DNA of 64,000 nt from Bradymonadia bacterium (GTDB lineage Bacteria; Myxococcota_A; Bradymonadia; UBA7976; UBA1532): assembly GCA_046290225.1 (NCBI GenBank), contig JBKAGE010000044.1, positions 1 to 64,000 on the forward strand, read 5' to 3'. The notes beneath the pieces are model-generated. The model searched no databases and had not been told where the DNA came from. It worked only from the letters and a program-made list of their open reading frames with translations. The translations under genes and the position numbers were made by a program. Below are positions 17,578 to 41,498 of this stretch, in pieces. Position 1 is the stretch's first letter, and every line of letters starts with the position of its first letter.

Positions 17578-17690
17578 GAGCCTCGAACCTCACGAATGTG
17601 TCGCCTGCTCAGAGAAGTGGCGTTACGATAGTGTCTCTACAACACGAAAAGCTGAGTGAACGTGGTCCATCAGCTTTCTGGGGCAACAGC

Positions 17691-18614
17691 ATGTCATCGA
17701 CCGAGCAAGCTTCATCCGATCTCACGCCATCACAACGCGCTCGCCTCGCCCTCGACGGCCTCTCGGTGGGCGATGCCTTCGGACAGAAATTCTTCACTCA
17801 TCTCACTGATGATCTGCCGACGCCCCCATGGCGTTGGACAGACGACACCATCATGGCCATCTCGGTGGTGGAGAACCTCGAGACTCACGGAGCAATTGAC
17901 TGCCCGACCCTCGCCACTGCCTTCGCTCGCCGATATGCAGAGGACCCCTATCGTGGCTATGGCCAGGGCGCCGCGCGTCTGCTCCAGGATCTGATGCGGG
18001 GCGCTCCGTGGAAAGCCACGGCGCAGTCTCTGTTCAACGGTCAGGGCTCGATGGGCAATGGCGGTGCCATGAGGGTGGCGCCTCTCGGCGCCTGGTTCGC
18101 CGACGCCCCTCTTGAAGTGCTCGTGGACAACGCCCGGCGCAGCGCCGAGGTCACCCACACTCACCCTGAAGGGCAAGCCGGTGCCGTTGCTGTCGCGGTG
18201 GCTACAGCGTGGGCCTGGCAGTGGTTTCAAACCCCGGTCTACGAACGCCCTCACCCCATGGGCATGGTCGAGGCGGCGCTGAACGCCATCGACGAGGGGC
18301 CCACAGCCAATCGTCTGGGGTTTGCATTGGAGCTCGGCATCGACGGGCACCAGCTCTCAGCCGTGAACCAGCTGGGCAACGGCAGCCGCATCACTGCACC
18401 CGACACGGTGCCCTTCTGTCTCTGGGCAGCAGCACGACATCTGGGGAAGTTCGAGAAGGGATTGTGGTTCACCATGCGCGCAGGGGGCGACATCGACACC
18501 AACTGCGCAATTGTAGGCGGAATTCTGGCCATGACAGATGCGGTGCCTCCTCAATGGCTCACCTGTCGCGAATACCTTCCGATCGCCCCAACGGCCCAAA
18601 CCGAAACACGCTGA
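17691..18614 (+). CDS. ADP-ribosylglycohydrolase family protein
   Basis: GLSVGDAFG, WTDDT, RGYG, SMGNGGAMRVAP, THTH, GGDIDTN..IVG motifs. Confidence 0.92.
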   Translation: MSSTEQASSDLTPSQRARLALDGLSVGDAFGQKFFTHLTDDLPTPPWRWTDDTIMAISVVENLETHGAIDCPTLATAFARRYAEDPYRGYGQGAARLLQDLMRGAPWKATAQSLFNGQGSMGNGGAMRVAPLGAWFADAPLEVLVDNARRSAEVTHTHPEGQAGAVAVAVATAWAWQWFQTPVYERPHPMGMVEAALNAIDEGPTANRLGFALELGIDGHQLSAVNQLGNGSRITAPDTVPFCLWAAARHLGKFEKGLWFTMRAGGDIDTNCAIVGGILAMTDAVPPQWLTCREYLPIAPTAQTETR

Positions 18615-18642
18615 ACCAAAACGAAACACACATTCAACTCAC

Positions 18643-18695
18643 GTTTCATTAAGAAACAGCCAATATAGGCTAGAGTTGCATGACACTGTCATGCA
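18643..18695. promoter_or_regulatory. Two palindromic candidate enhancer-binding-protein sites (UAS)
   Basis: GTTTC-ATTAA-GAAAC (18643-18657) and TGCATGACA-C-TGTCATGCA (18677-18695), 90-140 bp upstream of the predicted sigma54 start site. Confidence 0.55.
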
Positions 18696-18716
18696 GCCCC
18701 CTACACACACCAGTAA

Positions 18717-18729
18717 TTTCAATACGTTA
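18717..18729 (+). promoter_or_regulatory. IHF-like site
   Basis: TTTCAATACGTTA vs consensus WATCAA-N4-TTR, between the UAS and the sigma54 promoter. Confidence 0.5.
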
Positions 18730-18757
18730 ACGGACCCATTTCTCGACCCTTCGGTCA

Positions 18758-18773
18758 TGGCACACGATCTGCA
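18758..18773 (+). promoter_or_regulatory. sigma54 (-24/-12) promoter
   Basis: TGGCACACGATCTGCA: GG and GC at exact -24/-12 spacing; predicted +1 near 18784 coincides with the base of a long stem. Confidence 0.7.
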
Positions 18774-18783
18774 ATCATATCGC

Positions 18784-18990
18784 AGCAGATTGGCTGGTTG
18801 TTTTGCCGTACGGTTCCCTCCCTCTCCTCCGTTCGGCGTCCCCCAACCTGAACAGCCTACCAGTCTGCTCATGTGCTCTCGATCATGATTCTTGCCCCCC
18901 CTCGAATCATGGTCACGGACAGGGGAGTGCATACGAGCCCAAAAGGCTCATTCGAGGCGCAGCAAGCCCCCACTTGCTGCGCCTTTTTTT
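18784..18990 (+). ncRNA. Putative sigma54-dependent sRNA with C-rich loops (Pxr-like architecture)
   Basis: Stem AGCAGATTGG/CCAGTCTGCT; inner loop TTCCCTCCCTCTCCT; hairpin GATCATGATTC-TTGCCCCCCCTC-GAATCATGGTC; terminator with CCCCCA loop; no credible ORF. Confidence 0.7.
18955..18990 (+). terminator. Rho-independent terminator
   Basis: AGGCGCAGCAAG-CCCCCA-CTTGCTGCGCCT followed by a T run. Confidence 0.9.
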
Positions 18991-18992
18991 AT

Positions 18993-19119
18993 GGGCTCCG
19001 GCGCTGCGGCGGCGCCAGCCGCCGTGACGCCGGCGATCTCGCGCACAGGCACGACTTTTCCGTCCTCGGGGTAGCGCTGCTACCCCTGCGGGTGAAAACC
19101 CGCGCCTGCACACGAGCTC
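18993..19119. other. GC-rich multi-hairpin element (REP-like or structured RNA)
   Basis: Hairpin 18998-19033, plus GGGGTAGC-GCT-GCTACCCC and GCGGGT-GAAA-ACCCGC enclosed by CAGGC/GCCTG. Confidence 0.45.
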
Positions 19120-19248
19120 ACCAACCTCACGACGACTGTCGCCACCTCCGCGCCTCCGCAGGGCACGTGCACAGGTGGGTTATGGCTTTGAGGGCCAGCA
19201 GTTTGAGTTTTGTCGTAGGTGGGGGGTAAGCCTGCTGCTTTTAACGCA

Positions 19249-20427
19249 TCAAAGCGCTGGCAACGCCGAAGGGATCGTGAACCAGAAGGTCGATCCGTGC
19301 GCCCCGTCACTCTCCACCCCGACATTGCCACCACGCTCTTCGATGATGCGTTTGACGATGGCCAGCCCCAAGCCTGAGCTCTCCACCTTGTCGCGGCTCT
19401 GCAGTGTTTTGAGCTTCTCGAAGACCCTATCGTGATGATCCGGATGAATCCCCGGACCATTGTCGGACACCTCGATGCGCCAGAACCCAGCTTGCGTCAC
19501 CGCCTTCACCGAGATCTCTGGCTGTGCCTTGTCGTTGTACTTCACTGCATTGCTCATCAGGTTCTGCATGACATGATGAAGTGCCACCGAAGCACCCAGC
19601 ACAGTCGGCAGTGGCTCGATGCGCCATTGAACCTGCTCCGAGTCGGGGATCATGCCTTGCACGTCGGCGGCCACACGATTGAGATCCACCGGCACCATGG
19701 CCTCGTCACGCTCTTCCAAACGCCAGTACGAAAAGAGGTCCTGCATCAGCCGCCTCAAGCGACCAGCCCGTGTGTGGGCCATGTTCAACATGGGCACCAT
19801 CTCGGGGATCGCGTCGCCGTGGTCTTCGCACAAGATCTCCAAGAGCGACTCGATGTTGATCACCGGGCTCTTGAGATCGTGCGCCAGCACCCCCATGAAG
19901 TCGACGAGATCAGCGTTGTGTCGTTCAGCCCTGGCTGTCTTGGCACGTAGATCGAGCAGATACTCAACCTGAGCGCCGAGATCCTGAAGGGCCTGGAGTT
20001 GGGCATCGGTGAGATGCCGTGGGACCCGATCGATGACACACAGCGTGCCCACAGGCATCTCATCGTGGACAAGGGGTACACCGGCATAGAAGCGAATGTC
20101 GGGGGCTTCGGTGACGAGGGGGTTCTGCTGGAAGCGCTCATCTTCGAGAGCGTTCGCCACGATGAAAGTCTCATCTTGCAAGATGGCGTGAGCACAGAAC
20201 GCCAGATCTCGGTGAGTCTCCTCGGCGTCGAGGCCCACCCGGCTCTTGAACCACTGGCGATCGACATCGACGAGGCTCACGAGGCTGATGGGCACCTCAC
20301 AGATGTAGGCAGCGAGGCGAGTGATCCGATCGAAGGCCTCTTCGGCGGCGCTGTCGAGCAACCGCAACTTCTGCAGGGTGACGAGGCGTTTGACCTCTTC
20401 TGGATGTGGGGGGGCGGGTTGGGTCAT
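19249..20427 (-). CDS. GAF-domain sensor histidine kinase
   Basis: GAF (FDRITRLAA, FCAHAI, IRFYAGVPL, GTLCVID), H-box LAHDLKSP, NLMSNAVKY, DNGPGI, GLGLAIV. Confidence 0.93.
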   Translation of the reverse strand: MTQPAPPHPEEVKRLVTLQKLRLLDSAAEEAFDRITRLAAYICEVPISLVSLVDVDRQWFKSRVGLDAEETHRDLAFCAHAILQDETFIVANALEDERFQQNPLVTEAPDIRFYAGVPLVHDEMPVGTLCVIDRVPRHLTDAQLQALQDLGAQVEYLLDLRAKTARAERHNADLVDFMGVLAHDLKSPVINIESLLEILCEDHGDAIPEMVPMLNMAHTRAGRLRRLMQDLFSYWRLEERDEAMVPVDLNRVAADVQGMIPDSEQVQWRIEPLPTVLGASVALHHVMQNLMSNAVKYNDKAQPEISVKAVTQAGFWRIEVSDNGPGIHPDHHDRVFEKLKTLQSRDKVESSGLGLAIVKRIIEERGGNVGVESDGAHGSTFWFTIPSALPAL

Positions 20428-41110: not shown

Positions 41111-41126
41111 TGGCACGCCCTCTGCT
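41111..41126 (+). promoter_or_regulatory. sigma54 (-24/-12) promoter of the tRNA operon
   Basis: TGGCACGCCCTCTGCT vs consensus TGGCACG-N4-TTGCW (one mismatch). Confidence 0.75.
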
Positions 41127-41224
41127 CTAGTGCTGGGCGCCGCATCGAAGCGGACCGGGGGCGCCACTCTCGCCCCGCTTCGAGAAGGCCTGAGCAGCTG
41201 CTTTCATGCACGTATTGCTCATGT

Positions 41225-41296
<72 letters not shown>

Positions 41297-41423
41297 CAGT
41301 GGATTTGGGCGGGGCCTCGCGGGGGCGGGGTTTCGGGGTGCGGGCACGCCAGAGGTGGTGATTCTCATGTCACCGCCTCTGACGTGAGGTCCTCTGATGG
41401 CTTGACCATCAGGCGACCTTGTT

Positions 41424-41498
41424 TCCAGGGTAGCTCAGGGGTAGAGCATCCGGTTGTGATCCGGTGAGTCACGGGTTCGAATCCCGTCCTTGGAACCA
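41424..41498 (+). tRNA. tRNA with GTG (His) anticodon, non-canonical: U-1, U1-A72, A73
   Basis: TCCAGGG-TA-GCTC-AGGGGTA-GAGC-A-TCCGG-TTGTGAT-CCGGT-GAGTC-ACGGG-TTCGAAT-CCCGT-CCTTGGA-A-CCA. Confidence 0.88.

Follow-up and report, generated by a model that had tools for sequence, protein, structure and literature searches.

The stretch from position 18784 to position 18990 of the analyzed window (the whole 64,000-nt stretch of DNA, contig C44) is likely a regulatory RNA gene, preceded by a sigma-54 promoter motif and closed by an intrinsic terminator; the feature as a whole (18643–18990) is very probably real. Its predicted 207-nt product may be a lengthened relative of a ~50-nt hairpin RNA, the short mvaD-linked family of which is, according to sequence comparison, conserved across the bacterial family of the host and apparently undescribed. 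The first-pass annotation had proposed here a complete sigma-54 transcription unit; the promoter motif, a strongly folded noncoding stretch, and the intrinsic terminator were all confirmed, and every motif that it had listed was found in place (Table 1). Its reading of the product as an undescribed anti-Shine–Dalgarno (anti-SD) regulatory RNA stood as regards a stand-alone sigma-54 noncoding RNA with C-rich loops and anti-SD potential in loop 1, but not as regards kinship with the myxobacterial RNA Pxr.

The host genome (8.58 Mb, 64% GC, 99% complete) contained rpoN and 51 matches to PF00158 (enhancer-binding proteins), 44 of them near full length and none on contig C44. Three of its proteins were IHF-like by motif, and no Hfq was found in this genome. 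RpoB was 69–70% identical to that of Kofleriaceae, Sorangium, and Enhygromyxa and 64–65% identical to that of two other deltaproteobacteria, while an 11-row tree placed the host outside both groups with modest support; based on these identities and the tree, the host is a deltaproteobacterium and not a relative of Myxococcus in the narrow sense.

Table 1. Positions of the predicted RNA, its parts, its upstream sites, and neighboring elements (window coordinates unless a contig is named).
Feature	Position	Strand	Remarks
ADP-ribosylglycohydrolase gene	17598..18614	+	PF03747; upstream context, outside the unit
Palindrome 1	18643..18657	.	5-bp arms, 5-nt gap; weak candidate activator site
Palindrome 2	18677..18695	.	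Perfect 9-bp arms, 1-nt center; candidate enhancer site
IHF-like site	18717..18729	+	One mismatch to the consensus; position fits
Sigma-54 −24/−12 motif TGGCAC-N5-CTGCA	18758..18773	+	TGGCAC 18758, CTGCA 18769
Predicted 207-nt small RNA	18784..18990	+	Four stem-loops; fold z −6.5; RNA-run contig over 18799–18962
Domain 1	18784..18869	+	Long interrupted hairpin, 86 nt
Inner module	18800..18849	+	GCCG stem base, CCCUCCCUC loop, CGGCG and C-tract
Loop 1	18814..18828	+	15-nt C/U loop, predicted seed; unpaired in the ensemble
C-rich bulge	18839–18849	+	11 nt; absent from the first-pass list
Domain 2	18871..18932	+	62-nt hairpin, C6–7 loop; CCCCCCC 18895–18901
Small hairpin 3	18935..18949	+	Fold prediction
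Intrinsic terminator	18954..18990	+	13-bp stem 18954–18985, loop CCCCCA 18967–18972, U7
Dispersed repeat, ~200 bp	18995..19195	.	~60–70 genome copies; context, outside the RNA
GAF histidine kinase gene	19249..20427	−	Convergent; context
Own-genome copy of the short family	C72:111666–111745 (L271:4667–4746)		Divergent from mvaD (diphosphomevalonate decarboxylase)

The sigma-54 motif exceeded the chance level, an equivalent being found in 2 of 5000 dinucleotide shuffles of the upstream stretch, and the transcription start is presumably A18784, counted from the GC dinucleotide at −13/−12 according to sigma-54 geometry. Among 158 loose intergenic sigma-54 sites of the host genome, three were followed within 320 nt by a hairpin with a U-tract, and two belonged to noncoding, terminated units, namely, the 18784–18990 unit and a unit on contig C72. 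Both palindromes indicated in the first-pass annotation are present, but only the second is above chance. Palindrome 2, whose center lies ~98 nt ahead of the predicted start, is likely the enhancer (activator) site: a palindrome with 9-bp arms appeared in 2 of 1000 shuffles, and this is the sole perfect copy in the genome. Palindrome 1 is at chance level (arms of at least 5 bp in 430 of 1000 shuffles) and has two sites in the genome, the second of which lies ~600 nt from an activator gene. The IHF-like site is likewise present and suitably positioned, but an equally good match was found in 139 of 1000 shuffles, which is not above chance. A regulon search of the host genome with both palindromes turned up no further site close to a sigma-54 motif. 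It should be noted that a 15-nt sigma-54 core identical to that at 18758 precedes a predicted lipoprotein gene at C42:66555, where the palindromes are missing, and that a further sigma-54-like motif lies in the window at 41111–41495, ~110 nt before paired tRNA genes (41225 and 41424).

The 216 nt from position 18780 had a folding energy of −94.3 kcal/mol (z = −6.49), which was matched by none of 200 shuffles. The stem-loops with C-rich loops and the strong terminator were found as previously described, and in domain 1 an 18-bp outer duplex surrounds the inner module. The view that no ORF fits this stretch was upheld by the hexamer coding scores, which were negative for all ORFs overlapping the 207-nt RNA (−32 to −54), and the three longest of these ORFs had no Pfam match.

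Small shares of the region were covered by three sequencing runs, X1 and X2 (DNA) and X3 (RNA). The X3 run (metatranscriptome, symbiont metagenome) contained one 166-nt contig over 18799–18962, with seven other letters and one gap, from a ~95% identical relative; this contig, which gives no strand, ends, or level, falls within the transcript predicted between 18784 and 18990. The substitution analysis covered five of the seven differences, all of which were in the stems of domain 2 and preserved pairing: a compensatory swap of A-U to G-C at 18885 and 18910, A-U to G-U at 18888, G-U to G-C at 18928, and U-G to U-A at 18929. Five random transitions fell into stems with all pairing kept in 0.7% of trials and merely broke no pair in 27%. 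One extra C was present at the loop of hairpin 3. The contig was the only X3 cover within 3.5 kb, the flanking genes and the multicopy repeat being uncovered, which was not used as evidence; in both DNA runs, cover was deepest over the repeat. The X2 run (marine sediment DNA, another organism), whose cover does not extend past ~18871, contained a contig matching from 18785, with TGGCGC-N5-TTGCA 11 nt upstream, i.e., a different −24/−12 motif at identical 11-nt spacing with an unrelated spacer. From this comparison of sequences, the promoter and the RNA are kept and the spacer is not. The cover of X1, which excludes the RNA body, included a relative's contig over 18464–18695 with 13 differences, 12 of them listed; one (18645) was in palindrome 1, and none of those listed, hence at most one difference, was in palindrome 2, which adjoins the contig edge.

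Homologues of the long form were found in none of 27 family genomes and none of 112 class genomes (the host's genus not being represented), so the covariation of the long form comes from the single X3 contig. Structural conservation, by which the first-pass annotation had proposed to judge the unit, was seen in the paired X3 stems but not in these genomes. When compared by BLAST with 60 relatives and the 27 family genomes, the unit gave chance words only, and the single-sequence model R1 matched none of the 27 family genomes and one of the 112 class genomes (E-value = 0.027). This match was rejected as a leader before a gene that we recognized by eye as presumably ileS-like. The structured leader at L235 (G212:C116:14660–14889), which lies before an apparent ileS gene and ends in a terminator, is unusual for the group and possibly T-box-like or an attenuator. 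A metagenome scan for the promoter with the first 9 nt of the RNA gave at least 123 stretches, and none of those listed was similar according to nhmmer.

It is very unlikely that the stretch lacks an independent functional RNA and is instead a leader, a mobile-repeat remnant, or a 3′ untranslated extension of the ADP-ribosylglycohydrolase gene. No plus-strand intrinsic terminator was found between that gene and the RNA, the dispersed repeat adjoins the 3′ end, and the searched genomes contained no homologue, all of which would suit such an origin. On the other hand, the 207-nt RNA is present in one copy in the host genome; it is not a leader, since no plus-strand gene lies downstream, where the repeat is followed by the convergent histidine kinase gene; and both the fixed spacing of the X2 promoter motif and the retained X3 stems argue for a unit of its own. 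The upstream ADP-ribosylglycohydrolase has at best 54% identity to its relatives. The repeat at 18995–19195 is MITE- or REP-like and is often located at contig ends and behind T-rich or CTA/TAA-like ends; 3′ of the terminator of the C72 unit, a related piece is also present.

The short family, absent from the first-pass annotation, was discovered using a pattern of the sigma-54 motif and a C-rich word, which revealed hairpins in five family genomes, three of them with tandem copies, each preceded by its own motif. The predicted RNA is ~50 nt long and forms a single 14-bp hairpin at a locus between mvaD and pepP, an aminopeptidase P homologue. The C72 unit, syntenic with the family copies, consists of one hairpin (z = −6.9) with a U7 tail, and most copies of the family have a C-tract at the end rather than a U-tract. 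Model R2, trained on 9 copies, had matches at E ≤ 0.05 in 18 of the 27 other family genomes and at E < 1e-9 in 17, 12 of these 17 being outside the training set; a match in genome G015 (E-value = 0.013) was dropped, as it covered the promoter only. In six genomes of other families, R2 reached E-values of 0.006–0.05 only. The 12 new loci had mvaD upstream in 10 cases, pepP downstream in 11, and GG-N10-GC kept in 9. Loci of the family (L255, L261, L282–L297, L305, and L306) were recorded in 17 of the 27 family genomes and in the host genome. The RNA-only model R3 matched 9 of 11 family genomes and none of 139 others (a phylum sample with 38 candidates scored per genome under strict filters). No Rfam family matched in a scan of five short-family loci.

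In the 21 aligned copies (20 of them distinct), both sides changed in 10 of 14 pairs and 99.3% of cells were paired; none of 500 shuffles reached the observed level, and controls with a slid alignment were 34–57% paired. The CCCUCCCUCC loop was intact in 20 of the 21 copies. That the loop stays constant while the stem covaries freely suggests that the loop is the working part. Half-sites GGCACA/GTCACA/TGTGCC recurred 40–130 nt ahead of the −24 element in the majority of first copies and did not precede tandem second copies; these repeats are candidate activator sites of the family. Viral contigs searched with the short-family pattern yielded no match. A phylum scan of 401 genomes gave 15 matches outside the family, mostly 5′ leaders, versus 10 for reversed-pattern controls, and with the exception of one pair the matches outside the family were set aside as background. 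Long hairpins led by a sigma-54 motif and having a common C-rich internal loop were observed from position 1501 of L409 (genome G368) and L410 (genome G087), in two genomes of another family of the phylum; with CCCUCCCUCC in this internal loop, they possibly form a second C-loop family. Group II intron domains 5–6 (RF00029, 49 bits) were located beside the short RNA at the C72 contig end (L271:4957–5039, minus strand).

Several features are common to the 207-nt unit and this family, namely, the sigma-54 motif, the CCCUCCCUC loop, the GCCG/CGGCG stem base, and the C-tract after the stem. The sigma-54 motif combined with CCCTCCCTC occurs at only two sites in the host genome, the 207-nt unit and the C72 unit, and CCCUCCCUC is in a loop of both of these terminated sigma-54 noncoding units. 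The pattern of stem base, loop, and C-tail, which was written post hoc, after both RNAs had been seen, was found in 17 of 21 family members and at one site in the 8.6-Mb genome, the 207-nt RNA. On the 64-kb window, the inner module was the best match of R3 (16.8 bits, E-value = 0.2), with an end-to-end alignment, and the second match of R2 (13.1 bits, E-value = 0.15), whereas true members of the short family score 50–94 bits; it was not found in the genome-wide family-model search or by nhmmer. Compared to the family, the loop of the inner module has a 2-nt insertion, and its inner stem has ~9 bp instead of 14 bp. Unlike the short family, the 207-nt RNA is not at the mvaD/pepP locus, the syntenic copy being the C72 unit, and lacks the upstream GGCACA/GTCACA repeats; because these repeats are missing, the 207-nt unit probably responds to a different activator. 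The scores are not significant and make homology suggestive at most, and common descent of the inner hairpin and the short family is slightly favored.

Alternatively, though with a low probability, the 207-nt RNA serves as a precursor from which cleavage of the outer domain 1 duplex would release the inner ~50-nt module as a short RNA of the family type. The end-to-end alignment of the module with the short-family model and its enclosure by the 18-bp duplex are compatible with such processing, as is the stepwise maturation of Pxr, from Pxr-L to Pxr-S (PMC10217877, PMC5684412). However, the X3 RNA contig continues through domains 2 and 3, and the pairing of domain 2 is also constrained.

The full 207-nt RNA is probably an Hfq-independent, trans-acting anti-SD RNA, by analogy with the mechanism of 6C, cuckoo, and Pxr. 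The host anti-SD was inferred from SD word counts, as the assembly lacks a 16S gene; AGGAG was found before ATG 646 times versus 43 in the upstream control and GGAGG 449 versus 50, and the commonest SD words were AGGAG, GGAGG, and GAGGA. Within the 20 nt ahead of start codons, the complement of loop 1 was 6–8 times as frequent as in gene interiors (at least 6 nt: 778 of 5916 predicted starts versus 121 in the coding control; 7 nt: 224 versus 27). Loop 1 provides the accessible, SD-complementary, C-rich loop by which the anti-SD class with C-rich loops is recognized. The complementarity was no higher than that of permuted loops (11/60 and 11/56), and since these do equally well, the match reflects capacity and not selection. 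Complements of the CCCCCCC loop (164 genes vs. 183 in the control) and the CCCCCA loop (125 vs. 138) were not enriched before starts, so the suggestion of several anti-SD loops was sustained for loop 1 but not for these two.

No conserved target was predicted for loop 1. Complements of at least 9 nt preceded 30 genes, which were functionally mixed (20 of the 30 scanned), and among the 30 loci with a full loop complement a single orthologous pair was seen; neither of its two genomes had a strong family match. A pilin gene with a 10-nt match was rejected as a target because the site was not kept in relatives. An unlikely alternative function is that of a decoy, with five C-rich single strands titrating a pyrimidine-binding protein (such as Rho or S1) or a G-rich RNA and no repression of mRNAs. 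Three C tracts without an SD-enriched complement, the lack of an emerging specific target, and one ANGGA in the domain 2 bulge in a genome that has csrA would fit this function. Against it, the exact order of CCCUCCCUCC in 20 of 21 family copies seems more seed-like than a composition-based protein site, and CsrA sponges bear many GGA loops, whereas the 207-nt RNA has one.

The 207-nt RNA was compared with Pxr, to which the first-pass annotation had likened it, and with other small RNAs. The Infernal search proposed there was performed: the Rfam scan of 18550–19300 gave no RF01812 match at E ≤ 10 and no match to any other family. RF01812 had no match in the host genome (150 of 2423 candidates scored), was not over the cut-off in any of 151 phylum genomes, which accordingly provided no positive control, and was not over the cut-off in five named myxobacterial genomes, where the sigma-54 motif with CCCTCCCTC was also absent. 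The score above 80 bits by which the covariance model assigns membership of Pxr was not reached. According to PMC5568312 and PMC5684412, Pxr has three stem-loops and a sigma-54 promoter, lies behind pxrR, and is confined to Cystobacterineae; a further source for comparison is PMC11928866. The C-rich loop ascribed to Pxr in the first-pass annotation proved right for its loop 1, where a primer given in PMC5568312 shows GGUUCCCCCC.

The two RNAs share a sigma-54 promoter motif, an upstream enhancer region, an intergenic multi-stem structure, a C-rich first loop, and an Hfq-less host, and the stem-to-loop junction GGUUCCC is present in both the 207-nt RNA and Pxr loop 1 (PMC5568312). Together with the 69–70% RpoB identity to three myxobacterial genomes, the promoter motif and the junction would speak for a true distant Pxr homologue gating multicellular development, a reading that is already largely refuted and has next to no probability. 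In contrast to Pxr (~110 nt, 109 model positions, three stem-loops), the 207-nt RNA has four stem-loops; it lies behind an ADP-ribosylglycohydrolase gene with no adjacent pxrK or pxrR-type activator, none of the 51 PF00158 matches being on its contig; and it belongs to another lineage than the Cystobacterineae to which Pxr is reported to be confined (PMC5568312). A role in fruiting-body development was not supported for the 207-nt RNA; the host genome has a flagellar cluster. Since it does not match the Pxr model and differs from Pxr in gene context and size, the 207-nt RNA is at most Pxr-like in working, and its membership of Pxr was not supported.

Other C-loop RNAs provide further parallels. 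PMC4615179 describes cuckoo RNAs (RSs0680/CcsR) of alphaproteobacteria, with anti-SD-like C/U loops, variable stems, and modular length variants, and treats anti-SD loop RNAs as a general class of convergent origin. The 207-nt RNA shares such a C/U hairpin loop; however, cuckoo RNAs have CCUCCUCCC in each of 2–4 similar hairpins, whereas the 207-nt RNA has CCCUCCCUC in one loop and different sequences in the others, and neither CCUCCUCCC in its listed loops nor a cuckoo match in Rfam was found. Unlike cuckoo RNAs, it has a sigma-54 promoter motif and a host without Hfq. The 6C RNA of Actinobacteria combines C-rich loops with a high-GC host, as does the 207-nt RNA, and pairs in a likely chaperone-independent manner (PMC6486639), but differs in phylum, architecture, and promoter and gave no Rfam match. 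GlmY/GlmZ and Qrr are reported to be under the control of a sigma-54 promoter and enhancer-binding proteins (PMC3045617 and PMC10162802), but the 207-nt RNA has no sequence or model match to them. A TRIC-seq preprint (10.1101/2025.09.11.675593) describes contacts of Pxr and MXnc1 with SD regions in M. xanthus, a host without Hfq. No published description of the 207-nt RNA or the short mvaD-linked family was found in a search mostly outside subscription journals. GlmY/GlmZ and Qrr act with Hfq or RapZ. For deltaproteobacteria without Hfq, Pxr is almost the only known case of riboregulation.

In the anti-SD mechanism proposed here, an enhancer-binding protein encoded elsewhere would bind palindrome 2 and switch the 207-nt RNA on, with sigma-54 transcription running from 18784 to the terminator. 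Loop 1 would act as the seed, kept open by long stems that may also stabilize the RNA, and its C/U sequence would pair without Hfq with the G-rich SD regions of several mRNAs and repress their translation. The descent of the inner hairpin from the ~50-nt mvaD-linked RNA, for which the odds are a little better than even, would leave two siblings that share a seed but respond to different upstream inputs. The results add to Pxr a second and independent system of sigma-54 C-loop RNAs, with a family that is backed by covariation and absent from Rfam, and possibly give a rare snapshot of a one-hairpin seed carrier that gained a new input as it grew to four domains. The 21 aligned copies and the fixed seed make comparative target prediction directly possible, and the system bears on the question, raised for cuckoo RNAs in PMC4615179, of whether the action of anti-SD loops is general or confined to selected mRNAs.

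A post hoc lead with a low probability is csrA as a target of the 207-nt RNA. It is quite unlikely that the full sequence of events took place in which the 50-nt RNA was duplicated, giving rise to the 207-nt RNA with a new enhancer, and both RNAs with the CCCUCCCU seed shut the csrA ribosome-binding site in flgL-csrA-fliW without Hfq; if this were true, CsrA would be controlled by base-pairing RNAs instead of GGA sponges in the absence of Hfq. The host csrA gene is in a flagellar cluster of a flagellin-family gene, csrA, and fliW (C75:228095–229866, L414), with AGGGAGGG ahead of its start and a leader, G-rich in any case, containing two G-rich boxes complementary to loop 1. Hybrid energies placed csrA 5th of 5919 for loop 1 and 16th for the loop of the C72 unit; with 25 permuted versions of each loop, its best ranks were only 14 and 20, respectively. 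After the opening cost of the mRNA was included for the top 200 genes, csrA ranked 103rd and 128th for the full loops and 7th for the common 9-nt core.
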